Part shown: positions 11,423 to 62,757 of the stretch, piece after piece | How the letters are laid out: the number at the start of each line of letters is the position of its first letter | Numbering within the stretch: the first letter of the stretch is position 1 | From: an uncultured Verrucomicrobiae bacterium | Lineage (GTDB): Bacteria; Verrucomicrobiota; Verrucomicrobiia; Limisphaerales; JAFGQR01 | DNA length: 64,000 bases | Assembly (NCBI GenBank): GCA_963788655.1 | Contig: CAWBHS010000057.1 | Coordinates: forward strand, 296,469-360,468 | Direction: 5' to 3' | Notes under the pieces: generated by a model | Databases searched by the model: none | What the model was told of the DNA's origin: nothing | Seen by the model: the letters and a program-made list of their open reading frames with translations, nothing else | Program-made: the position numbers and the translations under genes

Positions 11423-11469
11423 TGCAAAGTCCAGATTGGATTTTTTTATTTGAACGATCACCGCTTGCT

Positions 11470-24302: not shown

Positions 24303-25268
24303 CTACCGTTTTTCGTCTATTCTCTTATCTTTTCTGTTAATTCCACTTTTGGACCGATCTCGATGAGTGTAGTGGCTGGGCGAAACGCCCATGAAGGACC
24401 GGAAGGTGGCGTTGAAATGGCTCAAGCTCTCAAAACCAACCTCCAGGGCAGCCTCCGTCACGTTGTGTCCGGCCTCGCTCAGCAGCGCCGCAGCCCGATG
24501 AATGCGATAGCCCTGCAAATACTTCACCCAGGACATGCCCAACGCATTCTGAAATAGTACCTTCAGGCGTGATTCACTCATCCCGGCAGCGCGGGCTACG
24601 TTCTTCGCGTAAATCGGTTCCGGGTAATTCTCACGCAAATATTGCAACGTGCGTGAAACCGGCCGCCAGTCCACCTCCAAACACTCGGTGCCGATGTTCC
24701 GGCCTTCCGCCTCCTCCCAACGCAGGAGCAGGACCATCGCCTCCAATAGCAGGCTGCGCAGTCGGATTTCCCGGCCAAAGCGCTTCTGCTTAAATTCCGT
24801 CACTGCTTCCCCAAGCAACTCGGTCAGCCGCCGCCGCAGCGGTCCCGGCGGGCGAACCAGTCTTTCCTCCAAGGATTGCTTGGCGGTGAAACGGCTCAAG
24901 ATGCGTGGGCCATCACGTTGCGGCCCCATCTCGACCACCACCGACGGCAGGAAGAAGATCGTGATGAACCGGAGCGGATATTTGGTGATACGGCCCCAGT
25001 GCGGCACGCCCGGGCCGGCCAGGAACAAGTCACCCGGCCGCCGCTCGGCTTCCTCATTTTCCACCATCGAAATGCCTACGCCGGCCAGCACAATGCCAAA
25101 TTCACAGTAGGGATGACGCTCGGGATGAGGAGTCGGCGGCCCGGCCAGGATTTCACCGTGCCGGATCCAGATAGGACTCGTTTCGCTGAGCGGCTGGCGT
25201 GATTCCGTCACTTCCAGCAGCCAAGCCAGTTCCGGCAGCTTGGTACGATGCGCGGCGACATCTTTCAT
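24303..25268 (-). CDS. AraC family transcriptional regulator
   Basis: Cupin N-terminus (HPERHPYCE, PGVPH) and HTH (NVTEAALEVGFESLSHFNATFRSFMGVSPSHY). Confidence 0.93.
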   Translation of the reverse strand: MKDVAAHRTKLPELAWLLEVTESRQPLSETSPIWIRHGEILAGPPTPHPERHPYCEFGIVLAGVGISMVENEEAERRPGDLFLAGPGVPHWGRITKYPLRFITIFFLPSVVVEMGPQRDGPRILSRFTAKQSLEERLVRPPGPLRRRLTELLGEAVTEFKQKRFGREIRLRSLLLEAMVLLLRWEEAEGRNIGTECLEVDWRPVSRTLQYLRENYPEPIYAKNVARAAGMSESRLKVLFQNALGMSWVKYLQGYRIHRAAALLSEAGHNVTEAALEVGFESLSHFNATFRSFMGVSPSHYTHRDRSKSGINRKDKRIDEKR

Positions 25269-25438
25269 AGTGGTAATACGGCCAGCAGCCTAGAATGGTT
25301 TCATTGGAAGGTCAATTGGTACGTAAGCCGGCGGCTCGGGCGCTGGATTATCAGGCTCAGTGGAATTGGGGGGACGCGGAAACGCGAATCGCTCCCCATG
25401 CGGCGGCGGCTGAAGCAGGCGGCGCAACGTCGTTCGGC

Positions 25439-26239
25439 TCACGCCGGATAATCAAACGCCACCCCGTGTTCCAGCAACCGGTAGCGTTCGCCAATGCCCT
25501 GAAGCTGGAGGTTGGTGCGCAGCATTTGCGGCGGCTGGCAGTTGTCCGGAAACAGATCGTGATGGCAGGGAATCACCACTCGCGCGTCGAGACGCCGGGC
25601 AAGCTCAGCCGCTTCGGCCGGGCTCAAATTGCGGAACGCACCATTGATGACCGTCACTAGAATATCGGGCTTGTGCGCAGCCACGGCGTCCGCCAACAGA
25701 TCGTGGTAGCCGGTGTCGCCAGTGAAATAGACCGTCGGACCATCCTTCACAAAGCACAGGTAGCCGACGTGCGTGAGATCGTCGCCTCCCAACGGAATGG
25801 CGAAGGTGGCACGCACGGTGAGGTCATCCAACGTCACACTCTTGTTCGGCCAGACCATCGCGATTTCAGCGGCAGGGACGCCGAGCGTGTGCAGCTTCTC
25901 GACCGTCTCCGGCGGCGCCAGGTAGGGTCCCCGACCACCGTTCTCTCGATAAGCCGCCAGAGTCTCCGGATCGAGATGGTCCTGATGGCTGTGGGTCAAA
26001 ATGTAGAGGTCCATGCCTGCCAGTTCTCGGGCCGGCAACGGTGGTGGAAATCGGCGGTCGAAATCAAATCCATGTTGCTCACCAATCGCTTTGCATGAGT
26101 TGGAAAGGTACGGATCCAGGACCGCCATTTTGCCGGCCGGACTTTTGAGGATGAATCCCGACTGTCCCAGCCACCACAACGTAACGGAATTGGGCCGCGT
26201 GGGGTGAGAACGGATCTGGTTCAGGGTCAAAGCACTCAT
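25439..26239 (-). CDS. MBL-fold metallo-hydrolase (UlaG-like lactonase)
   Basis: WWLGQSGF, THSHQDHLD, YFTGDT, VIPCHHDLF. Confidence 0.88.
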   Translation of the reverse strand: MSALTLNQIRSHPTRPNSVTLWWLGQSGFILKSPAGKMAVLDPYLSNSCKAIGEQHGFDFDRRFPPPLPARELAGMDLYILTHSHQDHLDPETLAAYRENGGRGPYLAPPETVEKLHTLGVPAAEIAMVWPNKSVTLDDLTVRATFAIPLGGDDLTHVGYLCFVKDGPTVYFTGDTGYHDLLADAVAAHKPDILVTVINGAFRNLSPAEAAELARRLDARVVIPCHHDLFPDNCQPPQMLRTNLQLQGIGERYRLLEHGVAFDYPA

Positions 26240-26248
26240 GAATTGGTC

Positions 26249-27031
26249 TTAAAACTCGCGCGCATAGCCGGCCGTCCAGCCGCCATCGACCGTCAGGATC
26301 GCGCCATTAAAGTAGGAACTCTCCGGGGCGGCCAGGAATAACGCGGCGTGGGCGATTTCCTCCGGCGTGCCGGGCCGGCCGAGGGGGACGTGAGCCAGCA
26401 TGGCTTGGACGCGGTCGTTGAACTTGCCGTCCGAATCGTAGAACAGTTGCTTCGTGCCTTCGGTCAAGATGGAGCCGGGCGCGATACAATTAACGAGGAT
26501 GCCCTGCGGCCCCAATTCCAACGCCATGGATTTCGTGAGATTCACCACCCCGGCTTTCGCCGCCACAAACGGACTTTGCAGCCGAAGCGGCACCAAACCG
26601 ACAATCGATGCGATGTTGATGATGCGCCCGGATCGCTGGTCCAGCATCGGCCGTGCAGCGGCCCGACTCACATAAAAAAGCCCGGTTAGGTCCACCCGCA
26701 GGATGCGGTCCCACTCGTCCAAGGGGAAGGCGTCGATCGTCACGCGGTGTTGCAGCGTGTTGACACCCGCATTGTTGACGAGGATGTCGAGCCGGCCCAA
26801 GCTCCGCACCGTTTCGGCAACGCCCGCTTCCACCTCGGCGTTCTGGGTCACGTCCAACCGCAGCGCCAGCGTCCCTGGGAAACGCGCCGCGGCGGATCGG
26901 GCTGTCTCAACGTTGATGTCGGCATAGACCACGCGCGCTCCGTTGGCGGCGAGGACATCGGCAATCGCTTGCCCGAGGCCCCGGCCGGCACCGGTCACCA
27001 ATGCCACTTTGCCTTCGAGATCGACCTTCAT
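26249..27031 (-). CDS. SDR family oxidoreductase
   Basis: TGAGRGLG, NNAG, IINIAS; atypical FVAAK in place of YxxxK; VDGG. Confidence 0.9.
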   Translation of the reverse strand: MKVDLEGKVALVTGAGRGLGQAIADVLAANGARVVYADINVETARSAAARFPGTLALRLDVTQNAEVEAGVAETVRSLGRLDILVNNAGVNTLQHRVTIDAFPLDEWDRILRVDLTGLFYVSRAAARPMLDQRSGRIINIASIVGLVPLRLQSPFVAAKAGVVNLTKSMALELGPQGILVNCIAPGSILTEGTKQLFYDSDGKFNDRVQAMLAHVPLGRPGTPEEIAHAALFLAAPESSYFNGAILTVDGGWTAGYAREF

Positions 27032-27339
27032 AAGTTTAACGCGAGGATCGAGGCGAGTTGGCACCGCCGGTGACGTCCCAACGAGGTAGCCACCTCGCCG
27101 CCGCAGCTCTACGGGTCATCCCAAGTAGCCGTGATGTATTCATATACTTGCCGCTTGTTAGCACAGAGGGCCGGGAGCACGCATCTGTTTTTTGGGCGAT
27201 TCATGGTTGTTTTTCCTCGAATCGAAACCGCTCGTGGTCCTCAAAAACAGTGAAAAATAATCGAAAAAGACAAGCCTGCTTCGCTCACTGCCCTTACGCT
27301 GTTCACGATGAAACCAAACTCCAGTCCTTGGGTCACCGC

Positions 27340-29383
27340 ATGAGCAGCAGCTCGCAAGTGCTTGACGTGCGTGAGCAGACAACGGCGCCACCTCAACCCG
27401 CGCGGTCCGCTTGGCTGGCGTTCTATCGGCAGATGCAGCTCATCCGGCTTACCGAAGAACGATTCGTGCGTTCGCACCAGCGCGGGTTGATTCACGGCGC
27501 GTGCCATACCTATATCGGCCAGGAAGCGATTGCGGCCGGCGTGGGCGCTCATCTGCGGCCGGACGATGTGGTGTTCAGCACCCATCGCGGACACGGCCAC
27601 GCCCTCGCCAAAGGACTCGAACCGCACCGGCTCTTTGCGGAGCTTTACGGGCGCGAGACCGGTTGTTCGCGCGGACGCGGCGGCAGCATGCACTTGTTTG
27701 CGCCGGAGATCGGGCTGCTCGGCACCAGCGGCATCGTGGGCCCGTGTATTCTGCAAGCCGCCGGCGCGGGTTGCAGTTTTCAAGTCCTGAAAACCGATCA
27801 GGTGGCCGTCGCGTTCTTCGGCGATGGCGCCGTGAGCAATGGCGCATTTCACGAAGGGTTGAATCTGGCGAGCCTTTGGAAGTTGCCCGTGCTCTTCGTC
27901 TGCGAAAACAACCAATACGCGACGGAAATTGCCTTTGCCGATGCCACCGCCAACCCCAGCGTGGCCAACCGCGGCGCGGCCTACGGTCTGCCGGGCGTCG
28001 AGGTGGATGGCAACGACGTGCTGGCGGTGGCAGCCGCGGCGTGCGAGGCCGTGGAACGTGCGCGCTCCGGTGGCGGGCCGACGCTACTCGAGTGCAAAAC
28101 GTACCGCATCCGTGCCCACGCGGAGGGAATGGGTGATTTCACTTATCGCACGCGCGAGGAAGTCGAGCACTGGAAAACGCAGTGTCCGATCGCGAAATTA
28201 AAGCAACAGGTGCTGGAGGACAGATCCGGCTGCCGCCGACTGAACTGGAGGCCATCGACCAGGAGGTCACCGCGCTGGTGGAGGCGGCGCATCAATTCGC
28301 CGAAAGCAGCGCCTATCCGGCCGCCGAATCCGCCACCCAGCACGTTTATGCCCCCGGCCCGCCGGCGCCCCGGCGGCGCGATGTTCCGATGGTTTCGCGC
28401 GAAGCCGCGCGAGTTGACCTTCATGAAAGCGACCCTCGAAGCGCTCACCGAGGAGATGGCGAAGAATCCGAAGATTCTGGTGTTCGGCGAAGGCATTGGC
28501 GAACGCGGTGGCAATTTCGCCACGACCACGGGACTTTTTGCCCGGTATGGAGCCCGGCGGCTGCGCGACACGCCGATTTGCGAGCGCGGCTTCGTGGGCC
28601 TCGCCGGCGGCGCGGCGATGAGCGGCACGCGGCCCGTCGTGGACTTCATGTTCGCCGACTTCGTCCTCGATGCCGCCGGCGAAATCATCAACCAGATTGC
28701 CAAGATGCATTACATGAGCAGCGGGCGCTTGAAGATGCCCGTGCTGCTGCGCGGCTGCATCGGCATCGGCCACTCGGCGGCGACGCATCACTCCGGCAGC
28801 TACTACTCGATGTACGCGCAACTTCCCCGGCCTGCGCGTCGTCGTGCCGTCCTCACCGCGGGATGCCAAGGGTCTGCTCAAGACCGCCCTCACGTGCGAC
28901 GATCCGGTGCTCTTCCTCGAACACCGCGAGTTGCTCGCCCTGAAAGGCCCCGTGCCCGAGGAGGAATATTTCATTGATTTCGGCCAGGCTGCCGTCGTGC
29001 GCGAAGGTAGCGATGTCACCGTCGTCGCCCTCGCGCTGATGGTTCACCAGACGCTGCAAGCCTGCGACGCGCTCGCGCAGGAAGGCCTTTCCGTCGAACT
29101 CATCGATCCGCGCACCGTCGCGCCGCTCGATGTGGAAACCATCCGCCAGTCCGTGGCGAAGACAGGCCGGCTGTTGATTGTGGACGAGTCGTTCGGCCAC
29201 GGCGGCATCGGCGCCGAAATCGCGGCCCAATTGGCCGACCAGGGCTTCGACGATCTGGATGCGCCCATCCGCCGCCTCAACGGCGCGCCCACGCCCACCC
29301 CGTACAGCCCGCCGCTCGAAGCCGCCGTCGTGCCGAACGCAACGACCATTGCGCAGGCGCTACGCGACCTTTGTGACGAGTGA
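27340..29383 (+). CDS. Fused 2-oxoacid/acetoin dehydrogenase E1 alpha+beta, copy 1 (frameshifted)
   Basis: HTYIGQEA, STHRGHGH, FFGDGA...ENNQY (TPP motif), DTPICE, FLEHREL, ELIDPRT. Confidence 0.9.
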
Positions 29384-29446
29384 GAGGCAGGAGGCAGGAG
29401 GCAGGAATCAGGAAACAACAAACAGGAAACAGACGACGGGAGAGAG
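29384..29446 (+). repeat. Array of nine degenerate GAGGCAG heptamers
   Basis: gaggcag x3, gaatcag, gaaacaa, caaacag, gaaacag, acgacgg, gagagag; begins immediately after the E1 stop codon. Confidence 0.85.
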
Positions 29447-29458
29447 AACGATATCAAT

Positions 29459-29843
29459 ATGGCAGTGCAATCAATCAAAGAGTTGACGGTTTACAGGAAA
29501 AAGCTACGCGCTCGCGATGCGCGTGTTTGAAACGAGCAAGCGATTTCCCAAAGAAGAAGTGTTTGCACTTACGGGTCAGATTCGTCGGTCTTCGCGTTCG
29601 GTGTGTCAGAATTTGCGCGAAGCCTGGGCGAAACGGCGATACCCAGCGCATTTTGTCAGCAAGCTGACCGACTGCGACGGGGAGAATGGCGAAACCGAGA
29701 CCTCCCTCGATTTCGCCCACGACTGTGGCTACATCTCGACGCATGAACACTCCGAGTTGGTGGGGCTTTGCCTTGAAGTCGGCAAAATGCTCGGCTCAAT
29801 GATCCAGAAACCCAAACCGTTCCTCCTGTCTCCTGATGCCTGA
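29459..29843 (+). CDS. Four helix bundle protein (23S rRNA intervening-sequence protein family); 1-nt frameshift in the A-run ~29500
   Basis: KELTVYRKSYALAM...FPKEE-x-FALTGQIRRSSRSV...EAWAKRRY...FVSKLTD...ET...L...CGYI. Confidence 0.9.
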
Positions 29844-29860
29844 CTACTCACCCCTTTCCC

Positions 29861-31057
29861 ATGCCCACGTCCATCACCATCATTGTTCCGCGTCTCGGCT
29901 GGTCCATGGAGGAAGCCACGTTTGCTGGTTGGCTGAAGCAACCGGGCGAGACGGTTAAAGCCGGGGATTTGCTGTTCACGTTGGAGAACGAAAAAGCTTC
30001 GCAAGAAGTCGAGTCAATCGACGCCGGGATTTTGCGCCTTCCACCCGACGCGCCGCAGGTGGGCGACGTGGTGAAGGTCGGTGCGTTGCTGGGCTATCTC
30101 GACGCGGAAGGCGAATGCGATGCACCCGATGTCAGTTCGCCTCCGTCACCACCAACGAAAGAACAAAACCCGACTCCGTCCATGGAAACGAGCACAGTCG
30201 CATCGGTTGCAGAGCGCGCCAATGTCGCAACCGGGGCCCGCACCGCTCACGCTGCCATCAGCCCGCGGGCTCGCCGGCGCGCGGCTGAATTGGGCGTGGA
30301 CGGGAGCCGGTTGCGCGGCAGCGGGCGCGCCGGGCGGGTGGTGGAGGCCGATGTGCTGGCGGCTGCAAAGCAGTCAACGCCCTCCAATCTCTCCACAATG
30401 CGCCGCCTCATCGCGCAGCGCACCGCCGAGAGCTTCGCCGCCGCGCCGCATTTCTATCTGCGCACCGAGGTGGACGTCACCGCGCTGCAGCAACTGCGCG
30501 CGCGCCTCCTGCCGGACATCGAACGATCCACTGGCGTGCGCCTGACACTTACCGACTTGATTCTGCGCGCCCAGGCCCGGGCTTTGCGCGAATGCCCTTT
30601 CGCCAATGCCATCTGGGAGAACGGTCGAATCACGCCGCTTGCCGACGGCGACGTGGGCCTGGTCATCGGCTTGCCGGAGGGCCTGATGATTCCCATCGTT
30701 CGTTCCGTTGATGCTGCTGAACTGGGGGCACTGGTGCAACAGCGAGCCGCCCTGGTCGAAACCGCACGTGCCGGCAAGCTGACCAACGAAGCCATGGAGG
30801 GCGGAGCCACCAGCCTCTCGAATCTCGGCAACTCCTGCGTAGATGAATTTTCCGCCGTCCTCCCGCCCCCGCACAGCAGCATCCTGGCGGTCGGCCGCGC
30901 CACGACGCGCCCTTTCGTGGTGCAGGAACAACTCGTCATGCGTCCCACCCTCAAGCTTTGCCTTTCCGTGGATCACCGCGTCATGGACGGCGGCCCGGCG
31001 GCGGAGTTTCTGGGCCGCATTGTCGCGGGACTGGAGCAACCGGAAATCCTCGCATGA
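29861..31057 (+). CDS. Dihydrolipoamide acyltransferase E2, copy 1
   Basis: Lipoyl domain ENEKASQEV, E3-binding SPRARR...GSGRAGRV, catalytic DHRVMDG. Confidence 0.92.
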   Translation: MPTSITIIVPRLGWSMEEATFAGWLKQPGETVKAGDLLFTLENEKASQEVESIDAGILRLPPDAPQVGDVVKVGALLGYLDAEGECDAPDVSSPPSPPTKEQNPTPSMETSTVASVAERANVATGARTAHAAISPRARRRAAELGVDGSRLRGSGRAGRVVEADVLAAAKQSTPSNLSTMRRLIAQRTAESFAAAPHFYLRTEVDVTALQQLRARLLPDIERSTGVRLTLTDLILRAQARALRECPFANAIWENGRITPLADGDVGLVIGLPEGLMIPIVRSVDAAELGALVQQRAALVETARAGKLTNEAMEGGATSLSNLGNSCVDEFSAVLPPPHSSILAVGRATTRPFVVQEQLVMRPTLKLCLSVDHRVMDGGPAAEFLGRIVAGLEQPEILA

Positions 31058-32523
31058 CCTCTCATTCAACTCACATTCTGCAAAACTACATCAACGGACG
31101 CTGGCTGGATTCCGCGTCGGGCCAGCGGGGTCGCTGCGTCAATCCGGCCAATCGCGAGGAAACAGTCTGCGAAGCTCAGGCTTCCGTGCCACAGGACGTT
31201 GAGCAGGCCATCGCGGCGGCGGCGCAGGCGTTTCGGGATTGGGGGCAAATGCCGGCACCTCGACGCGCGGCGTTGCTGCAGGAGTTCTGGTTTCGAATGA
31301 AGTCCCGGGAGGAGGATTTCGTGCGCACCATCACGCGCGAGAACGGCAAGACCCTGCGGGAGTCGCGCGCGGAATTTCAGGCCGCCCTCAAAGAAGCGGA
31401 ATTCCAAATCGGTCAGGGTCGCCGGATTGCAGGGAAGCATCTGCCGTCGGAAGTGCCGGGCGTTGCCTGCTACCTTAGGCGCCGGCCGCTCGGGGTGGCC
31501 ACCCTTATCACTCCGTGGAACTTCCCGCTCAACGTCGCCTGCCGCAAACTCCTCCCGGCGCTCATCGCCGGCAATTGCTGCGTCCTCAAACCGTCCGACC
31601 TAACGCCAATGTCGGCGGCGCTGCTGTTCGAGCTGCTGCACGAAATCAGCCTGCCGCCAGGCGTGGCAAATCTGGTCACCGGTCGCGGCTCCGTCATTGG
31701 CGATACGCTCGTCACACACCCGACTGTCCAGGCGGTGTCGTTTACTGGCTCGACCGAGGTTGGCGTCGGCATCGCGCAAAAACTCGCGGGCCGCGCCACC
31801 AGAGTTCAACTGGAAATGGGCGGCAAGAATCCGCTCGTCGTACTGGCGGACGCGGATTTGCCCAAAGCCGTCGAAGCCGCCGTCGTGGGGGCGTATAGTT
31901 GCAGCGGGCAATGGTGTACTTCGACCAGTCGTGTCATCGTCGAGCAAGCGGTTTACGCGCCGTTCCTCGAACAGCTCGTGGCGTCCGTGAACACCCTGAC
32001 CGTCGGCGATGGCTTCGACGAGACGAGTCGCATGGGGCCGGTGTGCGGGACACAGCAGTTCGAGAATATTCTGCGTTACCTGGAACTGGGCAAATGCGAA
32101 GGGGCCCGCTTATGCGCCGGGGGCAAAGCATTGACCGAGGGCAAATTGGCGCAGGGCTGCTTCATTGCGCCGACGGTGTTTGCGGACGTTGCGCCCGGCA
32201 TGCGCATCGCCCAGGAAGAAATCTTTGGCCCGGTGCTGGTGGTGATGCCGACGAAGGATTTCGACGAGGCCCTGCAACTGGCGAACGCGACGCAGTTCGG
32301 ATTGGCGTCGTCGATCTACACGAACGACCTGGCCAAGGCCCAGCGTTTCGTGGCGGAAAGCGGAGTGGGGCTTTGCCATGTGAACCTCTCGACGGCGTGG
32401 AAGGAACCGCAACTGGAGTTTGGCGGCATCAAGGAATCCGGCCGGGGCCTGCCGGAAGCTGGCGAAAGCGGGCTTGAGTTCTTCACCACTCACCAAGCCG
32501 TGTATGTGAAGGAGCAGGCGTGA
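31054..32523 (+). CDS. Aldehyde dehydrogenase (2-ketoglutaric semialdehyde dehydrogenase-like)
   Basis: ITPWNFP, FTGSTEVG, LEMGGKNP, GQWCT, QEEIFGPV; ATGA overlap with E2. Confidence 0.92.
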   Translation: MTSHSTHILQNYINGRWLDSASGQRGRCVNPANREETVCEAQASVPQDVEQAIAAAAQAFRDWGQMPAPRRAALLQEFWFRMKSREEDFVRTITRENGKTLRESRAEFQAALKEAEFQIGQGRRIAGKHLPSEVPGVACYLRRRPLGVATLITPWNFPLNVACRKLLPALIAGNCCVLKPSDLTPMSAALLFELLHEISLPPGVANLVTGRGSVIGDTLVTHPTVQAVSFTGSTEVGVGIAQKLAGRATRVQLEMGGKNPLVVLADADLPKAVEAAVVGAYSCSGQWCTSTSRVIVEQAVYAPFLEQLVASVNTLTVGDGFDETSRMGPVCGTQQFENILRYLELGKCEGARLCAGGKALTEGKLAQGCFIAPTVFADVAPGMRIAQEEIFGPVLVVMPTKDFDEALQLANATQFGLASSIYTNDLAKAQRFVAESGVGLCHVNLSTAWKEPQLEFGGIKESGRGLPEAGESGLEFFTTHQAVYVKEQA

Positions 32524-34247: not shown

Positions 34248-34259
34248 ACCACCAAGACC

Positions 34260-34940
34260 ATGCAACTCTTCATTGACAGTTCCAATCCCCAGGAAATCCT
34301 CACGGCTCGGTCGTGGGGCATCATCGACGGCGTAACTACCAACCCCTCGCTCATGGCGAAGGGCGGGCCGGACATGCAAGCTACGCTCCGCCAGGTGCTG
34401 GAAGCGTCGCCCGGCCCGGTCTTCTGCCAGGCCATCGGCTGGAAGGAGGTGGCGCCGCTCACGGCGCAGGCGCGTTGGCTCCACCGCTTTTCCGACCGCA
34501 TCATCGTCAAACTTCCCATCAGCATCGCCGGGCTTCAGGCGGTCCGGGATTTGAAGCAGGAACTGCCGAGTCTTCGTCTGGCCGTCACGGCCGTCAGCAG
34601 CGTCGCGCAAGCCTACCTGGTGGCCAAGGCGGGCGCGGACATTGTGGCACTGTTCAACGGTCCGCTGGATTTGGAACAGGACGAACCGGTTCAAATCGTC
34701 GCGCCCGTGCGGGCGATTTACGACCGCTACGGCTTCAAAACGCAAATCCTGTCGGCCGGCCGCTTTGCCCGCGCCTTCGGCGAATACGCCGCGGCCGGCA
34801 CGGATTATTGCACGCTGCGGATGGAGTTCCTGAAGTTGCTGTACGAACACGCCTTCACCGACAAACGGATGAACGGTTTCCTGCACGACTGGCAAACGGT
34901 CTTCGGGAACATGACCTGGCCGGAAGCCGAAGACAAAACA
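34260..34940 (+). CDS. Transaldolase / fructose-6-phosphate aldolase family protein (no stop in this assembly; reads through into the SDR)
   Basis: MQLFIDSSN, DGVTTNPSL, IIVKLP, AKAGA; 3' end approximate. Confidence 0.85.
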
Positions 34941-34997
34941 CGGGGCAGGAGGCAGGAAGCAGCAGACCGAAAGCGGATTCCTAACTCTGTCTCAGCC

Positions 34998-35783: not shown

Positions 35784-35808
35784 GGCGAGATCTGAAACGT
35801 TTGATTGC

Positions 35809-38110: not shown

Positions 38111-38118
38111 ATCCAGCC

Positions 38119-39477: not shown

Positions 39478-39657
39478 TCCGGATGGCAGCCGCTGACAGC
39501 CTGCCCGGCGAGCCTATTCATTCACTCCCCACCGTGAGGCGATAGTGGCCCTGGCAGGGAAAAAACCGCAAACCTTGAACCGAATACCGGTGGTGCCAGC
39601 GGCCGGCTTGCGCTACAAACCAAGCTGCTTACTGACTGGTAAAAACGTTATCGACCT

Positions 39658-42143
39658 ATGAATAAACGAACATTCAACTCCTTCACCCTCACTCTGGTCA
39701 GTGCCGCCTGCTGGTGGCCTGTCGCCGGGTGGTCCGTAGCCCCGACCGAATTCGAACTGGGCGAAGCCGCCCGCTGGGCCGCGGCTAAATTCGAGGCCGT
39801 GGCCGATACCGCCAAACCCAGTCCCGGCCTCTACGTCCTCGCCAATAACGATCCGGTGCAACTCAATGCGCGGGCCGGCAAGCCCATGCGCATCGCGGAC
39901 CAGTCCTACTCCCGCGGACTTTATTGTCACGCCATGAGCAAGGTCATCGTCCGCCTGCCGGGCCGCGGCGACGGAGTTCACGGCCATCGCCGGTGTGGAT
40001 AGCAACGACAACACGAGCGGCGGACAAGGCAGCGTTCACTTCGCGGTGCAGGTGAACGGCCAGGAACGCTTCAAATCTCCCCTCTTGCGTGAAGGCATGG
40101 CCGGAGTGCCGGTCAAGGTGGATTTGGGCGGCGCCACGGAGTTCATCCTGCTGATCGATGACGGCGGCGATGGCATCAGTTGCGACCAGTCGGATTGGGC
40201 CGAAGCCCGGGTAAAGCTCGAGGACGGGCGCGCGTTCTGGCTGGCCGACCTGCCCCTCTCCGAAGGCGCTGGCCGCAAGCCGATCAGTGCGGACCCGCCG
40301 TTTGCCTTCACGTATAACTGGCAAGCCCTCCGCCGAACTGCTTAAGAACTGGAAGGTGGCGCGTTCCCGCCGCGACCTGGATGCCCAGCGTGTCGAGCAC
40401 GTTCAGACCTACACCGACGCCGCCACCGGTCTGCAAGTGCGTTGTGTGGCGGTCGAATACCGGGATTTTCCGACCGTCGAGTGGACGGTCCATTTCAAGA
40501 ACACCGGCCAGACGGATACACCAGTTCTGGCGGATGTCCAAGCGCTCGACACCCAATTCGACAGCGGCGGCAAAGGCGATTTCACCCTGCACCATCACAA
40601 GGGCACTTTTGTCCGCGTGGACGATTTCGAGCCGTTGACTACCCTGTTGAAGCCGAATCAGCAGGAGCGGTTTGCCCCGCCCGCCGGCCGCCCGTGCGGT
40701 CACGTCTGGCCCTATTTCAACCTCGAGTGGGCGGGACAGGGCGCGATCGTGGTCGTGGGCTGGCCCGGACAATGGGCGGCAACCTTTGCGCGCGATGCCG
40801 GCGTCAACCTGCACCTCACCGCCGGGCAGGAACGCACTCATCTCCGGCTGCAGCCCGGCGAGGAAATCCGCACGCCCCTCATCGTGGTCCAGTTTTACCG
40901 CGGCGACTGGATGCGCGCCCAGAACGTCTGGCGCCGCTGGATGATCGCGCATAACATTCCGCTTTCCGGCGGCGAGAGTCCCAAACCGCTGTTGACGCCG
41001 TGCAGTTCGCATCAGTTTGGCGAAATGATCCACGCCAACGAAACCAACCAGGAGTTTTTCATCCAGCGCTATCTGGACGAAAAGCTGAATCCCGATTACT
41101 GGTGGATGGATGCCGGCTGGTATGTCAACCAATCCGGCTGGCCCAACACGGGCACATGGCTGGTGGACAGCAACCGCTTCCCGCACGGCTTGCGGGCCAT
41201 CACCGACTACGGGCATGCCCGCGGGGTGAAATCCATCGTCTGGTTCGAGCCGGAACGCGTGACCCCGGGCACCTGGTTGTTCGAGAAACACCCCGAGTGG
41301 CTGCTGAAAGGCACCCTCCTCAACCTGGGCAATCCGGCGGCGCGTCATTGGCTCACCGATCACATCGACCAACTCCTCACCGAACAGGGCATCGATCTCT
41401 ATCGTCAGGACTATAACATCGACCCGCTTGGTTTTTGGCGCAGCAACGACACCGCAGACCGCCAGGGCATCACCGAGAACCACTACGTCACCGGTTACTT
41501 GGCTTACTGGGACGATCTGCAACGCCGGCATCCGGGGATGCTGATCGACTCCTGCGCCTCGGGCGGCCACCGCAACGACCTCGAAACGATGCGCCGCGCG
41601 CTGCCGTTTCTGCGCAGCGATTTCATCCAGAACGCCGTCGGCAACCAGGGCCACACCTACGGGCTATCGTTCTGGCTGCCGTATCATGGCACCGGCACGG
41701 ACCAGGATGGCACCTATGATCTGCGTAGCGCGATGGACTGCTCGCACTTCATCGCCTGCTGGGACATGCGCAACCGCAAGCTTGATTACAATCGCCTCCG
41801 CAAAATCGTCAACGACTGGCGGGGCTACGCGGACAACTACTTCGGTGATTACTATCCGCTGACACCCTACACGACTTCGAACGACGCCTGGATGGCCTGG
41901 CAATTCGATCAACCCGAGCAAGGTCGCGGTCTTCTGCAAGCCTTTCGCCGCGCGACCAGCGTGTATGAATCCGCCCGTTTCAAACTGCGCGGACTCGAAC
42001 CGGACGCGCGGTATGTGTTAACCAACCTCAATTCCGGCAACGCGCAAACGCTCACTGGACGCGAATTGTCAGAACACGGGTTCTCCGTGGCCATCGAAGC
42101 CCAACCGGGTGACACGGTGATTACCTATACCAAGGCGAAGTGA
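39658..42143 (+). CDS. NPCBM-domain GH36 alpha-galactosidase-like glycoside hydrolase (frameshifts ~39970 and ~40318)
   Basis: Signal peptide; GLYCHA, GDGISCDQSDWAEA (NPCBM); WWMDAGW, WFEPER, YRQDYN, IDSCASGGHRND. Confidence 0.85.
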
Positions 42144-42190
42144 GCGCGTAAAAACCGGTTGATGGGTTCCGGCACCATTCTCCGACTCCC

Positions 42191-44352
42191 ATGGTTTGCG
42201 GACCTGATAAACGTCGATGGCGCCACGCCGGTCGCGGCCTAACACTGCAGCGACAGTTCCGGCGAATCGCGGCAGGAGCGCGGCGTTTACGCCGCTTGAC
42301 CGTCCTATCCCGCAAGCCGCTGGTTGGCCTTGGGTGCTTGAAGCGGCCCAAAGGCCGCGCGCCTATCGGTGAAAGTGTCGCTGGAGTGCTAAGCCGTATC
42401 AACTCACTTCGCCCAAGCTGGTTGAGGGGGGTATTCTATTTGGTGCTCGGTGCCGCCGGATTCGGCATCGGCTCGCTGATTGGCATCGCCGACCCCGTGC
42501 CGCCCGCAACACTACCAGAGCCGGGATTCTCATTGGTCTGCGGGGGTGCGACGAACGCAGCGGCGTCAGACTGGATCGACCCGCACTCGGGGCTTATTGC
42601 GCGACACTTGGTCACCCGCTACGCGAATTTCAACGCGGTCGAATGGCGATTGGAACTCGAACAAGCCGAGCCACGGCCCAGTCCTCCCATAGTGGAACAG
42701 GTCCAGGCGGGTGACTTTACGCTCCCCTGCCCGGTCGGCGAGCCGTTGACCTTGCATTGGTCGGAAGGCAGCCACGAAAGCGCCACGGATTTCCAGCCTC
42801 GGGAAACGTTGTTGCGGTTGGGCGCAACGAGCGAGTTCACCCCGCAGGAAGGCCGTTCTTCCGATGGGGTGATGCCGTATTTCAACCTCGCGCGTCACGC
42901 CGGGGGCGGCTGGATCGTGGCGGTAGGTTGGACGGGGCAATGGCAGGCGAGATTTACGCGGGCTACCAATGGCCCCGTGCGGGTGCAGGTCGGACAGCAG
43001 CGCTTCCATGCGGTGCTCCGTCCCGGCGAACACTTCCGCACACCCGCCGTGCTCGTCATGCCGTACCGAGGTGATTGGCTGGACGGGCAGAACCAGTTCC
43101 GGCGGCTCATGCTCGCCCGTTTTACTCCGCACCCCGACGGAAAAGCGCCGGAGCTGCCAATCGCCGCGTCGGGTGCGACCATCGGCTTCAACAATTTTAG
43201 CGAATCCAACCAGCTTGCTGCCGTGGACAATGTCATTGCCAAGCACCTGCCCGTGGACACCTGGTGGATCGATGCCGGTTGGATGGAAGGCGGTTTTCCT
43301 ATGGGCCAAGGCAACTTTGACCCGGACCCGCAGCGTTTTCCGCGCGGGCTGCGTCCGGTCGCCGATCGGGCGCACGCCGGTGGACTCCGGTTTCTGCTTT
43401 GGTTCGAACCGGAACGCGTTATGCCGGGGACCTGGCTGCGCCGGAATCACGAACCCTGGCTGCTGGTCCCGTCGGATCTCCCGGCCGAGCTCAAGTATCA
43501 GGACTCCTGGCGGCTGTTGAATCTGGGTGATCCGCAGGCGCTCGCCTGGCTGAAGGCGCACATCTCTCAACTCATTGACCGTTGGGGCATCGATGTGTAT
43601 CGCCAGGACTGCAACCTCCATCCGGCCTGTTATTGGCGAACCGGCGAACCGCCCAACCGCGTCGGTCTGACTGAGGCGCGCTACGTCGCGGGGCTCTACG
43701 ACTTCTTGGACTTCCTGCTTCAGGAACATCCGCAACTGCTGATCGACAACTGCGCCAGCGGCGGGCGGCGTCTCGATTTTGAAATGATGCGCCGCAGCGT
43801 GGTCCTCTGGCGTTCCGACCATTGTTGGCAACCAGAGGCCGACCAGGCCAAGACCTATGGCCTGTCCCTGTGGCTTCCCTTGCAGGGCCTCGGGTCCATC
43901 TCTGCTCAGCCCTATGTTTTTCGCAGCGGAATGGGCAGTTGCGCGACCTACGCCTTTAACTTCTACTCCGAGAATGAGCCTTTCTGGAAACCGCTGGACC
44001 GGCTCATTCGAGAAGAAAAGCAGGTGCGGCACCTGTTTGCGGGTGATTTCCATCCGCTCACTCCCTGGAGCACGAACCGGCAGGACTTCATTGCGTGGCA
44101 ATTTCATCGCCCGGACCTGGGTGAAGGGTTGGTCCAGGCCTTTCGCCGCGACCAGTGCATTTATGAGGCCGCGCGCTTCAAGCTCGTTGGGCTCGATCCC
44201 ATACCCGTTACGTCGTGACCGACCTGGATTCCAGCGAGGTGAAAACGCTCTCTGGCCGCGAACTGCTGGAAACCGGTCTGTCCATAGATCTCAAGCAAAA
44301 ACCAGCAGCCGCACTGATAACGTATCGAAAGCGGGAGAGCCTAACCAAGTAA
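42191..44352 (+). CDS. Second GH36 alpha-galactosidase-like glycoside hydrolase (start uncertain; frameshift ~44200)
   Basis: GRSSDG, WWIDAGW, LWFEPER, YRQDCN, IDNCASGGRRLD, WRSD. Confidence 0.83.
42243..42388. mobile_element. MITE copy 3 (146 bp; CTAA target duplication)
   Basis: CTAA at 42239-42242 and 42389-42392; near-identical to copy 2. Confidence 0.87.
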
Positions 44353-44365
44353 TCAAAAACCAACT

Positions 44366-47300
44366 ATGAAGATTCGACATGTCTGTTCAGTGATAACGGG
44401 ACTATGGCTGCTGAGCAGCGCCGGCACTGCTGAGGCCGCGCCTATTCTCGGCCAGGTGCTCTCGCTCGACAGCCCGGATCAATGGGTTTTGGCCGCCGAC
44501 CCGGAAAATGTCGGCAAGCAGCAAGCGTGGTGGAGCCGCCCGCAAACCAACGCCAAACCGGTGCGAGTTCCCGGCATCATGCAGGAAACGCTGGGCGAAT
44601 ACCACGGCGTGGCCTGGTATTGGCGCCCGGTGAAGGTCCCGCGCAATCCGCATCCGGAGGGACGCTATATTCTGCGTTTCTGGAGCATCGATTACGCCAT
44701 CGAGGTTTGGGTCAACGGTAAATTCGCTGGCAATCACGAAGGCGTCGATACGATGGTCGAATTTGACGTGACTGAAGCGATCCGTCCGGAAGCGGACAAC
44801 CTGGTGGCGGTGCGGGTGATCAATCCCAGCAATACCCCGATCGACGGGTTTGCGATCCGCGCCTGTCCGGGGCGGAACAAGTCGGATCCATGGTCACCGG
44901 GGTCGTCCTACAACAGCGGCGGCATCCAGGATTCCGTCGAGTTACTGCTCGCGGCGCCGGTGCGAATCGAATCGCTTTACCTCAAGCCCGATTGGCAGAC
45001 CGGCGAGGTGGCGGCCAAGGTGAACGTGCGCAACGCCACGGACCAGCCGGTGAAGGGAAACCTGACGCTGAGCGTCGCGCTGGCTGCCGGCGGGGAAACA
45101 CTCGATCTCACCACCGACGGCCGCTGATCTCGCCCCAGGAGATACGCTGGTGAATGCCCACGTCCGCGTGCGCGACTTCCAACTGTGGGACCTCGATCAT
45201 CCGGTGCTCTACCGCGTCACAGCGCGGGTGCGGCGTGAGGGAAGCGAGTCGATCGACGAGAAGTCTGCCACGTGCGGCTTCCGCGATTTCCGATTTGCGG
45301 ATGGCTATTTCCGCCTGAACGGCAAACGGATTTTCCTCAAGAGCGCCCATTTTGGCGGAGAAGTGCCCCTGACCTACCTCGTGCCGCTCGATCCCGGGAT
45401 GCTGCGGAAGGATTTTCTCAGCATGAAGCTCATGGGCTTCAACATGGCCCGCTGCATCGCCGGACTGGGCCGGCGTTATATGATGGATCTGGCAGACGAG
45501 ATCGGCTTCCTGGTGTATGACGAATCGTATGCCGCGTGGTGCGTCGCGCCCTCGCCGCAGATGGCCGCCCGTTGGGACCAGACCACGGCCGGCATGATCC
45601 GGCGCGACCGTAACCATCCCTCCGTCGTCATCTGGGGATTGTTGAACGAGACGGGCAACGGCCCGGTGTTCATGCACGCGGTGGATTCCCTCGATTTCGT
45701 GAAGCAACTCGACGACACCCGCGTCGTGATGCTCAACAGCGGGCGTTTCGACGGCATGATGCTGGAACGTTCCGATGCGCCGCAACAGGTATTGCCGCAA
45801 GCCTGGGTGCAGGGGCGGGCTTTCCAGGTGCCCTTTGTCGCGCGCAACAGTTCGGGCGCCGACATCAACTACGACGGCTCAACCTTTCCGGCGGGCGCCC
45901 TTGCGCTGCACGTGGGCATGAGCGGGGAGCCGGCGGTACTCCGCTTTACCGCCCCCACTGATGGCGAGTATCACGTAACGGCCCGCTTCCAAGGCATCGC
46001 GGGATCGGCAGCGGGCGGGCCGGCCACCACCGGCGCCGGATACGTGGTGGCGGGCGGAAAAACCGTGTTTTCGGACAAGATCAATTGTGACGGACGCCCA
46101 AACGAAGCGTCATACGAAGGCCGCGCGACGCTCAAAAAGGGCGAAGTGATCGATGTCGTCTCCGGCTCGGGCAACGCCACCTTTAACAGCGACACGATCC
46201 GCGTGGACCTAACGGTCGCAGGCCCGGATGGAGTCGCCCACAATGCCACCAAGGACTGGTCCATCACGAACCAGAATCCCAACGGACTCTGGTCCTACGG
46301 CTATATGCCTGCCGGCGTCGTGGACTCCGGCAGATTCATCCCGTTCGAGCAGACCTTTGACGGAGTGCGCCGGAGCATTGGCAGCTTGAGCAATCCCGGC
46401 TCGAACGAATGGGAGGATGTGCTGGCCGACAAGCATCCGTATCAGCCATGCCCGCACACCGCACCCGGTCATCCACACGCTGCGCACGATCGACGGCGGG
46501 GGCCGGCCGCTGTTCATTTCCGAGTACGGCTTTGGCAGTGCCAACAACCTGTTCCACTTGCGGGGGCATTACCAGCAAGCCGCCGCCGGATACGCGTATG
46601 ATCGAAAAACGCTCGATGCGTTGTTCGGAAAATTCTCCGACGATTGGAACCGCTGGCAACTCGCCGATACGTTCGGCAACATGGAGAATTACTTCCGCCG
46701 CTGTATCGCGATGGAAGCGCAAGGCCGGCTCCTGGGCACCAGTGCCATTCGCGCCAACTCGAACGTCGTCGCCCACAGCCTCACCGCCTGTCACGACACG
46801 GTGATGGCAGCGGAAGGACTCATCACTTCCTTCCGCGAGCCCAAGCCGGGCGTGTTCGACGCGATGTGGGACGCCTGGGCGCCGCTGCGTTTCAGCGTCT
46901 TCGTCGAGCCGGTCCAGGCCGTCCGCGGCGGCTCGGTACATGTCGAAGCCGTGTTGGTCAATGAGGATGCCCTCAAACCAGGCAAATATCCGGTGCGCGT
47001 GCAAGTGATGGGGCCGGCCGGTTACTTCGCATTGGACACGTCCGCCTCGATCGAAATCCCCAAGACCCTGACCCGGCCGGAACCGCCGTTTGCGAAGCTG
47101 ATCTTCGCCAAGGAGGTCAAGCTCGACGGACCCGCGGGCCGCTACAAACTGTTTGCGTTCTTTGCGAACGGGGCGGCGGCGGAAGGCGGCGAATACACCT
47201 TCTGGGTGGACGATCCGGCCGCGATGCCCCAGGTGGATACAACGGTGACGCTGTGGGGAGAAGATAAGGGACTGGCGCGCTGGTTGACCGCAAAAGGAAT

Positions 47301-47925
47301 CAAAACCCAACCCTTCGGCCCCGTCGCAGTTCCGCGCGAGCTGATCCTGGTGGGACAGGTTCCCGGCGACGATTTCGCGGCGTTGACGAAGCGGATCGAG
47401 GCCGGAGCCACCGCGGTGTTCCTCTGTCCGTCCGTGTTCGCCCAGAAAGGCCAGCCGACCGCTTTGTTGCCACTGGCAAACAAAGGTAGCTTGGTGGCCG
47501 TCCATGACTGGCTCTACGAAAACAATGACTGGGCCAAAAGCCACCCGATCTTCAAGGGGCTGCCCACGGGCCTCCTTGATTACCAGTTCTACCGCGAGAT
47601 TCTCGGGGACACGTTTTACAGTGGCCAGGCTCCACCGGACGAAGTCGTCGCGGGGATGATCAACACGTCGATCGGTTACAGTTCCGGCCTTACGGTGGCG
47701 GTGTATCGGCTCGGGCAAGGTCGCCTCGTGCTCAACTCACTGCGCGTGCGGGAGAATCTGTCCGTCGAAAACTCCCACCCAGTGGCCGAGCGGCTGTTGC
47801 GAAACATGCTGAATTTTGCCAAGGCAGAATCGCCTGAGAAATGGCAGCGACACTTGCGATTGGCCGACTGGAGCGCGGCGTTCACGCCGCTTCAACGTGC
47901 GCAATTGCTGACGCCTCGGCGTTGA
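44366..47925 (+). CDS. Secreted GH2-family glycoside hydrolase with extra domains (frameshifts ~45120 and ~46460)
   Basis: YHGVAWY, HEG, GGIQDSV, GFRDF...LNGKRIF, MGFNMAR, RDRNHPSVVIWGLLNE (acid/base), FISEYG (nucleophile). Confidence 0.85.
47870..47894 (+). repeat. Single GGAGCGCGGCGTTCACGCCGCTTCA REP (same family as the REP inside the MITE)
   Basis: One mismatch to the MITE-internal REP; preceded at ~47845 by CAGCGACACTT, which resembles the MITE TIR. Confidence 0.7.
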
Positions 47926-60962: not shown

Positions 60963-60965
60963 AGT

Positions 60966-62347: not shown

Positions 62348-62363
62348 CTCATGAGGCCGGGAC

Positions 62364-62720: not shown

Positions 62721-62757
62721 GGTAGATTTCGTTACCTTTCTTTTCTGAAGACGTTGC

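Follow-up and report, generated by a model that had tools for sequence, protein, structure and literature searches.

Which sugar does the gene cluster at positions 24303–47925 of this window serve, and by what route? The window is the whole 64,000-nucleotide stretch of DNA analysed here (G+C about 62%), part of contig C57 of a metagenome-assembled genome (MAG) of an uncultured Verrucomicrobiae bacterium (8.96 Mb in 115 contigs, 86% complete, 5.6% contaminated); C-numbers denote contigs of this source MAG and L-numbers the related loci used in comparison. Our preferred reading, to which we give a probability of about 40%, is that the cluster encodes a non-phosphorylative catabolic route for a galacto-configured sugar, built around a three-gene core (genes for a UxaE-like epimerase, a short transaldolase-family enzyme, TAL, and a short-chain dehydrogenase/reductase, SDR1) and not described in the literature searched. 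The original prediction for this DNA had pointed to two distinct E1/E2 dehydrogenase modules and proposed stepwise oxidative C–C cleavage. Comparison with related loci places the conserved heart not in the E1/E2 pair but in the series UxaE-like, TAL, SDR, as E1 is present in 6 and E2 in 5 of the 17 short-TAL loci with at least 8 kb of flank. For this reason the central split is most likely non-oxidative and of transaldolase type, with oxidation by an aldehyde dehydrogenase (ALDH) and by E1/E2 expected downstream.

Genes were identified by Pfam and NCBIfam scans of the open reading frames (ORFs) in 24303–47925; given Pfam E-values of 1e-12 to 1e-160, the named matches are not chance. The gene list, order and span proposed earlier were recovered in full:

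24303..25268, minus strand: AraC-family regulator (Pfam HTH_18, 2.4e-24; Cupin_2, AraC_binding N-terminal domain)
25439..26239, minus strand: UlaG-like metallo-beta-lactamase (MBL)-fold hydrolase, probable lactonase (Lactamase_B_2/B_3, about 7.5e-16)
26249..27064, minus strand: SDR0 (adh_short_C2, 8.7e-60), divergent from E1ab-1
27340..29383, plus strand: E1ab-1, fused E1 alpha-beta dependent on thiamine diphosphate (E1_dh 1.1e-74, Transket_pyr, Transketolase_C; three frameshifts)
29460..29843, plus strand: 23S-IVP/bAvd-type four-helix-bundle gene (PF05635, 7e-24; TIGR02436 above cut-off)
29861..31057, plus strand: E2-1 dihydrolipoamide acyltransferase (2-oxoacid_dh 8.6e-57, E3_binding, Biotin_lipoyl)
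31054..32523, plus strand: NAD(P)-aldehyde dehydrogenase, ALDH (Aldedh, 1.5e-160)
32520..34247, plus strand: UxaE-like protein, 575 aa, predicted metal-dependent C4-epimerase family, core gene 1 (PF16257, 2.2e-23)
34260..34940, plus strand: short transaldolase-family enzyme TAL, core gene 2 (TAL_FSA, 9.1e-25)
34998..35783, plus strand: SDR1, gluconate-5-dehydrogenase-like, core gene 3 (adh_short_C2, 3.1e-62)
35809..38110, plus strand: E1ab-2, fused E1 alpha-beta (E1_dh, Transket_pyr, Transketolase_C on two overlapping ORFs)
38107..39477, plus strand: E2-2 dihydrolipoamide acyltransferase (2-oxoacid_dh 5.1e-80, E3_binding, Biotin_lipoyl)
39660..42143, plus strand: GH36a, secreted NPCBM plus divergent GH36-like protein (Melibiase 1.2e-23, Glyco_hydro_36C; two frameshifts)
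42191..44340, plus strand: GH36b, divergent GH36-like protein (Melibiase 5e-27; high-scoring segment pairs in two frames; one frameshift)
44345..47925, plus strand: GH2-family glycosidase, about 1150 aa, in three frame pieces (Glyco_hydro_2_N, Glyco_hydro_2, Glyco_hydro_2_C)

E1ab-1 starts at ATG 27340, leaving a divergent spacer of 275 bp to SDR0. Start and stop codons overlap by 4 nt at E2-1/ALDH, ALDH/UxaE-like and E1ab-2/E2-2, and the other intergenic gaps from E1ab-1 to E2-2 measure 12–77 nt. A scan for promoters and terminators returned fewer sites than shuffled sequences and was uninformative.

We collected 82 related loci, mainly by alignment-based metagenome search (a single-protein scan of genome contigs gave 2 loci), and counted their genes by tblastn; greedy ORF calling misses genes lying under long antisense ORFs in GC-rich contigs. 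Of the 61 loci with at least 800 bp beyond the UxaE-like gene, 36 have a TAL that starts within the next 400 bp in the same orientation; an SDR follows the UxaE-like gene directly in 17 of the 61, and 8 have neither. The complete order UxaE-like, TAL, SDR occurs in 28 of the 49 loci with at least 1800 bp downstream. These 'SDR follows' counts rest on weak SDR0 cross-matches (32–39%), and orthology was settled by an SDR tree that included SDR1. Here all 28 post-TAL SDRs and SDR1 itself form one clade (support 100, up to 79% identity), and the SDRs directly after the epimerase in TAL-less loci form a separate one. UxaE-like, short TAL and SDR1 thus form a widespread, tightly linked cassette, found in sediment, soil, peat and bioreactor metagenomes. 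Two genomes of the same phylum carry the order GH36-like/UxaE-like/(ALDH)/TAL/SDR, with the GH36-like gene in both. The neighbourhood, whose conservation had been proposed as a check, is indeed kept in other genomes. ALDH lies within 4 kb in 11 of the 26 short-TAL loci with room for it, and a GH36-like or GH2 gene in 6 of the 17 long ones. The cluster divides into this core, to which ALDH often belongs beside UxaE-like, TAL and SDR1, an accessory unit of SDR, E1ab and E2 that in some loci includes the MBL hydrolase, and glycosidases.

In one search 848 relatives of the UxaE-like protein were scored; the top 120 measure 512–652 aa and are 53–100% identical. Judged by the names of their sources, the relatives come from seven or more phyla or classes (Omnitrophota, Armatimonadota, Verrucomicrobiota, Terriglobia, Anaerolineae, Caldilineaceae, Planctomycetes). 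Within its own order, 5 of 40 genomes gave weak canonical UxaE-like matches and nothing stronger, and the 575-aa form was found in 2 of 400 other genomes sampled from the phylum, a patchy distribution that suggests transfer.

Against PF16257 the UxaE-like protein scores 83.2 bits (gathering score 27.1), covering profile positions 120–388 of 475. All of 28 members compared keep GADxDH, DE(H), HSGxD and NFGxEKGxDY unchanged, and the same motifs align in 6ilb and 9kcs. Its structure model (pLDDT 87.4, pTM 0.89) was matched by Foldseek to the tagatose 4-epimerases 9LHY, 9LHW and 9KCS and to UxaE 6IL9 (TMt 0.71–0.76, E 1.5e-23 to 2.4e-20); the next folds are GatZ-like proteins and the class II fructose-bisphosphate (FBP), tagatose-bisphosphate and sulfofructose-phosphate aldolases. 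An ESM Atlas search with this protein returned its own family alone. By its predicted fold the protein belongs with the metal-dependent C4-epimerases of ketoses, whose motifs it shares as putative metal-binding and catalytic sites, and its likeness to UxaE and the tagatose 4-epimerases (6IL9/6ILA/6ILB, 9LHU/9LHW/9LHY, 9KCS) in Pfam family, predicted fold and the motifs GADxDH, DE and HSGxD leads us to expect C4 inversion of a 2-ketose. Tagaturonate-fructuronate 4-epimerase is counted among the sugar 4-epimerases in the available part of PMC5434028. The window protein differs from UxaE in being about 20% identical by structural alignment and some 75–100 residues longer, in belonging to a separate, tight 575-aa subfamily (53–86% identity among more than 100 members), and in a context that holds a transaldolase rather than UxaC and UxuA.

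A change from tagato to fructo ketose by a class-II-aldolase-like 4-epimerase is also part of the Agrobacterium galactitol/D-altritol pathway, which Wichelecki and colleagues reportedly described in 2015 with a tagatose-6-phosphate 4-epimerase, and GatZ-like proteins are the next structural neighbours here. That pathway phosphorylates first, whereas the window cluster has no kinase and its TAL no phosphate-binding Arg.

The nearest solved structures to TAL are the short transaldolases 1vpx (129 bits) and 3s0c (119 bits) from Thermotoga and Thermoplasma, against 67–74 bits for chains of fructose-6-phosphate aldolase (FSA) and 67 bits for the Bacillus sulfofructose transaldolase 8bc3. Active-site residues were read from a HMMER alignment to 3s0c and from an alignment of 41 family members, with the roles that we take the residues of 3s0c (Lys86, Glu60, Phe132, phosphate-binding Arg135) and of FSA (Gln in place of the Glu, Tyr in place of the Phe) to have. 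The Schiff-base Lys is kept (Lys84, 86 in 3s0c), as is Phe132 (41/41). Gln57 replaces the catalytic Glu60 in 41/41, and Pro135 replaces Arg135 of the SPFVGR site in 40/41; R168 and R171 are invariant in the family. The active-site set of short transaldolases (EC 2.2.1.2) is thus incomplete (Lys and Phe kept, Glu and Arg exchanged), and so is that of FSA, where Gln57 is shared and position 132 is Phe. As far as the alignment tells, TAL lacks the canonical phosphate-binding Arg. A separate canonical housekeeping transaldolase is encoded on C58.

A transaldolase that works on a non-phosphorylated ketose recalls sulfoquinovose catabolism by SftI/SftT, in which, according to the available part of PMC7491151, a ketohexose derivative that carries no phosphate is cut by a short transaldolase, and oxidation or reduction of the C3 aldehyde follows. 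In both systems a glycosidase adjoins. Is the cluster a variant of this pathway, with E1/E2 turning sulfopyruvate into sulfoacetyl-CoA? The logic is the same, a transaldolase on an anionic ketose followed by an ALDH or reductase on the C3 aldehyde (PMC7491151, same part); Ldh_2 proteins found beside the cassette score 219 bits on L-sulfolactate dehydrogenase, below the cut-off of 500, and the GH36-like proteins match the GH31 TIM-barrel model weakly. We nevertheless consider it very improbable, since TAL, with its own signature Q57/F132/P135, is nearer to canonical transaldolases (129 bits) than to BmSF-TAL (67 bits on 8bc3), an epimerase stands where the isomerase would and has no role in that pathway, and neither sulfoquinovose isomerase nor a GH31 sulfoquinovosidase-type protein nor a sulfonate exporter or other sulfonate-handling gene was seen in the window or in the 130 ORFs of 8 long loci.

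Transaldolases and C4 epimerases of this fold share the C3–C4 bond of a 2-ketose as their site of action, and the adjacency of their genes is fixed, which argues for consecutive steps. By standard carbohydrate stereochemistry, D-galactose, L-arabinose, D-fucose and D-galacturonate give 2-ketoses of 3S,4S configuration, and transaldolases require 3S,4R; an epimerase of UxaE type, by inverting C4, would form the bridge between them. We therefore propose the following route, each step of which is conditional on predicted activities. Secreted GH36-like and GH2 glycosidases would release the sugar, which would be turned into a tagato-configured (3S,4S) 2-ketose or 5-keto-aldonate, possibly through SDR1 oxidising a polyol or aldonate; in an acid version, the aldonate would come beforehand from SDR0 and the lactonase. 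The UxaE-like protein would then invert C4 to give the fructo (3S,4R) configuration needed by transaldolase-type enzymes, and TAL would split C3–C4 without ATP-dependent phosphorylation, passing on or releasing the dihydroxyacetone unit and freeing a short aldehyde. ALDH would oxidise this aldehyde to a 2-hydroxy acid, with aldehyde:ferredoxin oxidoreductase (AFOR) possibly in its place in anaerobic relatives. SDR0/lactonase/E1ab-1/E2-1 and E1ab-2/E2-2 would serve as accessory lipoamide modules, with E3 supplied in trans, converting a downstream 2-oxoacid or acetoin-like ketol to acyl-CoA.

The glycosidase families point to galacto-configured glycosides. The start of GH36a is at 39660; its N-terminus resembles a signal peptide, an NPCBM-like domain is present, and across three frames it is 54% identical to the intact 849-aa NPCBM-GH36 protein of L037. 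GH2 likewise aligns across three frames to an intact 1049-aa GH2 protein of the same locus. Melibiase scores of the GH36-like proteins (84–95 bits) exceed the gathering score; the best solved alpha-galactosidase gives 89 bits, and the beta-L-arabinopyranosidase model NF053652 gives 48–60 against a cut-off of 1100. The sugar had been predicted as an unusual keto, branched or acid one. Nothing points to a branched sugar, and a galacto- or tagato-configured sugar, neutral or acid, fits best.

Between a neutral sugar (D-tagatose or L-ribulose type) and an acid one (D-tagaturonate type) the balance is close to even. ALDH and AFOR, the monosaccharide-type transporters of relatives and the tagatose-4-epimerase structural neighbours speak for the neutral sugar. 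The sole physiological precedent of the UxaE family, the gluconate-5-dehydrogenase-like SDR1, SDR0 with the lactonase, the kept arginines and the companions resembling kinases of 2-keto-3-deoxygluconate (KDG) speak for the acid. Among the family models, SDR1 matches best the gluconate 5-dehydrogenase subfamily (224 against a cut-off of 279) and ALDH the KGSADH GucD model (505 bits, under the cut-off of 770). SDR0 passes the 'glucose 1-dehydrogenase' subfamily model (225 against 215) and scores 209 bits on meso-2,3-butanediol dehydrogenase; its orthologues (58–62% identity) in L025 and L034 are the immediate upstream neighbours of a fused E1ab-E2. The MBL hydrolase has its best PDB match in UlaG (2wyl, 62 bits), and a homologue of it adjoins E1ab-E2 in L028.

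An acid sugar would also suit an ordinary hexuronate pathway of the Thermotoga type, which with its UxaE Rodionova reportedly described in 2012. Tagaturonate would pass through UxaE to fructuronate, through an SDR-type reductase to mannonate and on to KDG, with TAL an unrelated enzyme of the pentose phosphate pathway. The protein does fall within Pfam UxaE, SDR1 resembles gluconate 5-dehydrogenase and mannonate oxidoreductase, KDG-kinase-like PfkB proteins accompany the cassette in 9 short-TAL loci and an enolase-superfamily dehydratase-like protein in 2 loci, and a KDPG aldolase is encoded at 60291–60962 of the window. We judge this pathway distinctly unlikely all the same. No match to UxaC was found in the genome (86% complete) and none to UxuA among the scanned ORFs of the window, and the cluster shows none of UxaC, UxuB and UxuA; TAL stands between epimerase and SDR in the 36 of 61 loci already noted, and has a family-specific, non-canonical active site while a canonical enzyme is encoded elsewhere, and the UxaE-like protein is longer than UxaE and far from it in sequence.

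The companions of the cassette bear on the fate of the short fragment. Among short-TAL loci, Ldh_2 occurs in 12, a D-2-hydroxyacid dehydrogenase in 11 and both in 7, AFOR in 6, and a lactaldehyde-reductase-like iron-dependent alcohol dehydrogenase (Fe-ADH) is also met; URO-D-like proteins of methyltransferase type occur in 7, DeoC in 6, FAH-family proteins in 5 and RhaT-like symporters in 3. A second variant, TAL-less and counted over 17 loci, has a long TAL-family protein of about 550 aa in 16, Fe-ADH in 13, a LarA-type racemase in 11, an Nramp-like transporter in 11 and a glycerate kinase in 7, the kinase always together with the racemase. Loci of this variant are L019, L048, L055, L059, L060, L064, L066, L068–L071, L073–L075, L077 and L082–L088. 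The pair of L- and D-specific 2-hydroxyacid dehydrogenases in the first variant, and the racemase with glycerate kinase in the second, suggest that both variants produce a short 2-hydroxy acid of the 'wrong' hand, which they then invert. In the available part of PMC7583248, glycerate is named merely as a conceivable substrate of the LarA superfamily. As a separate observation, URO-D-fold genes resembling MtaA/CmuA lie beside the cassette in the anaerobe-type loci L008, L022 and L039 (also in L030, L047, L049, L053 and L062), with a B12-binding protein in two, which hints at O-demethylation of a methylated sugar.

Several of these companions would also fit a 6-deoxyhexose of fucose or rhamnose type. 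Its C3 fragment would be lactaldehyde, taken to lactate and pyruvate, and SDR-E1ab-E2 would either work in the manner of a butanediol dehydrogenase with an acetoin dehydrogenase, forming acetyl-CoA from a methyl-ketol sugar derivative, or be a dedicated pyruvate dehydrogenase (PDH). RhaT-like symporters (3 loci), a FAH-family protein most like 2,4-didehydro-3-deoxy-L-rhamnonate hydrolase (5 loci and window 62758–63564), the lactaldehyde-reductase-like Fe-ADH, Ldh_2, D-2-hydroxyacid dehydrogenase and LarA-type racemase, the score of SDR0 on meso-2,3-butanediol dehydrogenase, phosphotransacetylase (PTA) with acetate kinase in L009, and the place of both E1s in an Aco/PDH-y supergroup all agree with it. 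Yet L-fuculose and L-rhamnulose are 3R and so, by standard stereochemistry, not accepted by transaldolases; we know of no fucosidases or rhamnosidases in families GH36 and GH2; the FAH, RhaT and MR_MLE companions each occur in few loci; and both E1s lie outside the Aco reference clade. A 6-deoxyhexose is for us an unlikely substrate.

What, then, do the E1/E2 modules contribute? Both E2s carry all three Pfam domains (lipoyl, E3-binding, catalytic) and, as had been claimed, keep the lipoyl Lys and the DHRxxDG motif (ENEK44AS and DHRVMDG371 in E2-1, ETDK47S and DHRLIDG425 in E2-2). The two sets are diverged, also as claimed: the E2s are 32% identical and the E1s fall in separate clades. The cluster contains no E3, in agreement with the prediction, and two intact lipoamide dehydrogenase (E3) genes, both above the TIGR01350 cut-off, are located elsewhere, on C66 (510 bits) and C108 (494 bits).

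The E1 tree is a maximum-likelihood tree of 18 rows, several of them automatically annotated, with a small reference set of 2 Aco-type, 2 PDH and 2 BCKDH-type rows. Aco references were chosen by operon context (Acinetobacter baumannii, in an operon with acetoin reductase, and a Bacillus acoABCL-like operon); plasmid records annotated 'acoA' without acetoin context (Thermus, Sphingobium) were kept as labelled rows. E1ab-1 joins the fused E1ab proteins of four related loci (support 99/96), and E1ab-2 the sugar-operon E1 alpha proteins of Sinorhizobium meliloti pRM41A and Brevibacillus (97/96). The two Aco reference E1 alpha rows form a clade of their own (99/96). PDH-x and BCKDH-type rows lie outside, and both window E1s share with Aco a PDH-y/Aco-like supergroup whose inner order is unresolved. 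In the phylogenetic comparison that had been recommended, then, both E1s fall outside the Aco, PDH and BCKDH clades of this small set, and both belong to the PDH-y/Aco-like supergroup.

Among profiles, the E1 alpha parts match PDH_E1_alph_y best. On this model (TIGR03182, cut-off 393.85) E1ab-1 scores 321 as a partial match, the pieces of E1ab-2 165 and 63, and the intact homologues of L025 and L008 347–360; bona fide Aco E1 alpha proteins, at 325–370, are below this cut-off as well. The window E1s thus reach neither of the equivalog cut-offs of TIGR03182 and TIGR03181, and the beta parts of the intact E1ab homologues pass the broad 'PDH E1 beta' subfamily model (332–334 against 321). In the plasmid collection E1ab-2 is best matched by a Clostridioides difficile record (45% identity), whose operon (L119) holds a SorC regulator, E1 alpha, E1 beta, E2 and LpdA beside glycosidases and a phosphotransferase system (PTS).

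Two known systems resemble these modules in part. The AcoABCL system with butanediol dehydrogenase shares an E1 alpha near the PDH_E1_alph_y cut-off, an SDR directly before E1-E2 and the E2 domain set; in the window, by contrast, alpha and beta are fused, the E1s stand outside the A. baumannii/Bacillus Aco clade, E3 is outside the cluster and the context is sugar catabolism. SorC-regulated operons of E1 alpha, E1 beta, E2 and LpdA (L101 of S. meliloti pRM41A, L102 of Brevibacillus laterosporus, L119 of C. difficile) share a related E1 and neighbours such as a sugar kinase, an ABC or PTS transporter or a glycosidase. They differ in having split alpha and beta subunits and their own lpdA, have no UxaE-like/TAL cassette, and are annotated only generically.

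The E1ab/E2 modules are accessory to the cassette. Their sparse presence raises the question whether the cluster is a mosaic of independent units: an oxidative unit of Weimberg or De Ley-Doudoroff type (SDR0, lactonase, KGSADH-like ALDH), the UxaE-like-TAL-SDR1 cassette, two PDH/Aco-like complexes with substrates of their own, and the glycosidases. E1 and E2 accompany the cassette only in the 6 and 5 long loci counted above, and two E1/E2 sets were found in none of the other related loci, the window being the sole case. SDR-E1ab-E2, at times with the MBL hydrolase, is a conserved unit of its own in L008, L025, L028, L034, L039, L043 and L049, E1ab-2 groups with E1s from unrelated sugar operons of cultured bacteria, the best family match of ALDH is KGSADH, and the cassette is patchy in the phylum (2 of 400 genomes). 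On the other hand, the genes from E1ab-1 to E2-2 follow one another closely on the plus strand, with three 4-nt overlaps, L025 and L034 hold SDR-E1ab-E2-UxaE-like-TAL-SDR-ALDH as one co-directional array, and the cluster lacks the aldonate dehydratase needed to finish a Weimberg route. We regard a mosaic as rather unlikely.

A number of points weigh against the route for a galacto-configured sugar that we prefer. The neutral signs (ALDH, AFOR) and the acid signs (SDR0 with lactonase, SDR1, PfkB in 9 loci, carboxylate transporters of the second variant) pull apart. The scheme is built on predicted enzyme activities, and its substrate is a candidate. The window cluster has no aldose-ketose isomerase, transporter or kinase, and the entry step is for that reason a guess; the failure to find UxaC in the 86% complete genome weakens entry through galacturonate. 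The altered phosphate site of TAL may exclude the usual acceptor, glyceraldehyde-3-phosphate, in which case aldolase activity would be possible; this option is in turn weakened by Phe132, where FSA uses a Tyr. Because 11 of the 17 long short-TAL loci lack E1/E2, as do all 16 long ones of the second variant (E1 in 0/16), the place of these enzymes in the pathway is weakly constrained. The model leaves the companions resembling URO-D/B12 methyltransferases, DeoC, FAH-family proteins and RhaT unexplained, and it assumes that all frameshifted genes are intact in the organism.

Each enzyme comes from a known family, the core of the cassette is widespread, its transaldolase is distinctive, and no matching pathway was found in print. 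The earlier statement that no described pathway combines these enzymes stands for the literature searched, most subscription journals being outside its coverage; within the same coverage no paper on a UxaE-like/TAL/SDR cassette was found, and none for PDB 9KCS or for acetoin dehydrogenase with glycolyl-CoA. Publications on 'tagaturonate epimerase' and on UxaE with transaldolase, in the text available, contain none on such a cassette, and those on tagatose 4-epimerase, in theirs, are biocatalysis papers or reviews throughout.

A bolder form of our reading, tentative and on balance doubtful, would make the cassette a widespread ATP-independent 'epimerase-transaldolase shunt' from tagato sugars or acids into central metabolism, used by bacteria of numerous uncultured lineages, and the fused E1ab/E2 a new lipoamide-dependent class that forms acyl-CoA by cleaving ketols or hydroxy-oxoacids derived from sugars. 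The route would then be new and of central type rather than a variant of hexuronate or acetoin catabolism. If our preferred reading holds, it would mean a sugar catabolic route free of kinase, a physiological role for a large UxaE/tagatose-4-epimerase-like subfamily whose members are now studied mainly as tagatose biocatalysts, a defined transaldolase subfamily for non-phosphorylated substrates, of use in aldol biocatalysis, and a first lead to the function of the E1/E2(/E3) complexes that cultured rhizobia and firmicutes carry in their sugar operons. The cassette may also be relevant to the turnover of glycans by uncultured bacteria of Verrucomicrobiota/Planctomycetota-like, Omnitrophota, Armatimonadota and Chloroflexota affiliation (names from source records).

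Are the broken genes of the cluster real? Mapped against intact homologues from related loci, at least 10 frame breaks affect E1ab-1, E1ab-2, GH36a, GH36b, GH2 and the small inserted 23S-IVP/bAvd gene. E1ab-1 has three (about 28225, 28385 and 28820, relative to intact 666–669-aa homologues in L025 and L008), the inserted gene one (about 29495, in an A5 run), E1ab-2 a single one (about 36749–36789), GH36a two (about 39962 and 40315), GH36b one (about 44200) and GH2 two (about 45093 and 46474); at least 4 breaks lie in or beside homopolymer runs. In the same MAG rpoB is split into 3 frame pieces, rpoC, which also contains an internal TGA, into at least 5, and several E1/E3 copies elsewhere into 3–5 each. 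With these genes equally broken, the frame breaks of the cluster are assembly errors, not decay. Real pseudogenes were considered and are ruled out by the shattered rpoB and rpoC, the broken E1/E3 copies and the breaks adjoining homopolymers. Any 'split gene' or 'pseudogene' call in this MAG needs read-level confirmation; examples of frameshifts across the genome are C45:51013-58956, C57:201023-202399 and C115:31346-35962.

Reads from one run (5% of words) gave five contigs of 151–165 nt identical to the window, with zero indel rows, at 32484–32634, 32938–33088, 33083–33233, 34075–34239 and 38492–38656. No frameshift site is covered among the read contigs listed, which therefore speak neither for nor against assembly error, nor on habitat.

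The 23S-IVP/bAvd gene is bracketed by inverted repeats of GGCAGGA-like heptads (arms 29388–29401 and 29822–29835, 93% complementary). The same 14-mer has one further copy in the window, at 34944–34964 in the in-frame TAL-SDR1 linker (5 matches against 0.70 expected). The gene with its repeats (29384–29855) looks like a small mobile cassette, and the 14-mer at TAL-SDR1 like its scar. In the MAG, TAL and SDR1 form one read-through ORF of 507 aa; since 38 of 40 relatives end TAL with a stop codon of its own, the read-through is probably an artefact.

Other genes of the window were noted alongside the cluster. About 12 kb away, the minus strand at 60291–63564 encodes a KDPG/KHG aldolase (60291–60962), an FGGY kinase and a FAH-family hydrolase (62758–63564), the last 50% identical to one adjoining the cassette in L025; this block is possibly a downstream keto-deoxy-acid branch. 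The FGGY kinase is split into 61583–62347 and 60966–61592, probably by another frameshift, and the second ORF matched no Pfam family at E<=1e-5. Just upstream of the cluster, the minus strand at 15414–23354 encodes a 1680-aa protein (CotH, lamin-tail, Ig, chitobiase-C) followed by lamin-tail and laminin-G proteins, and looks like a block of large secreted or surface proteins. At 9597–11541 a xylose-isomerase-like TIM-barrel protein adjoins a 3-keto-disaccharide-hydrolase (DUF1080) protein, a pairing that we take to be one known from 3-keto-glycoside metabolism.

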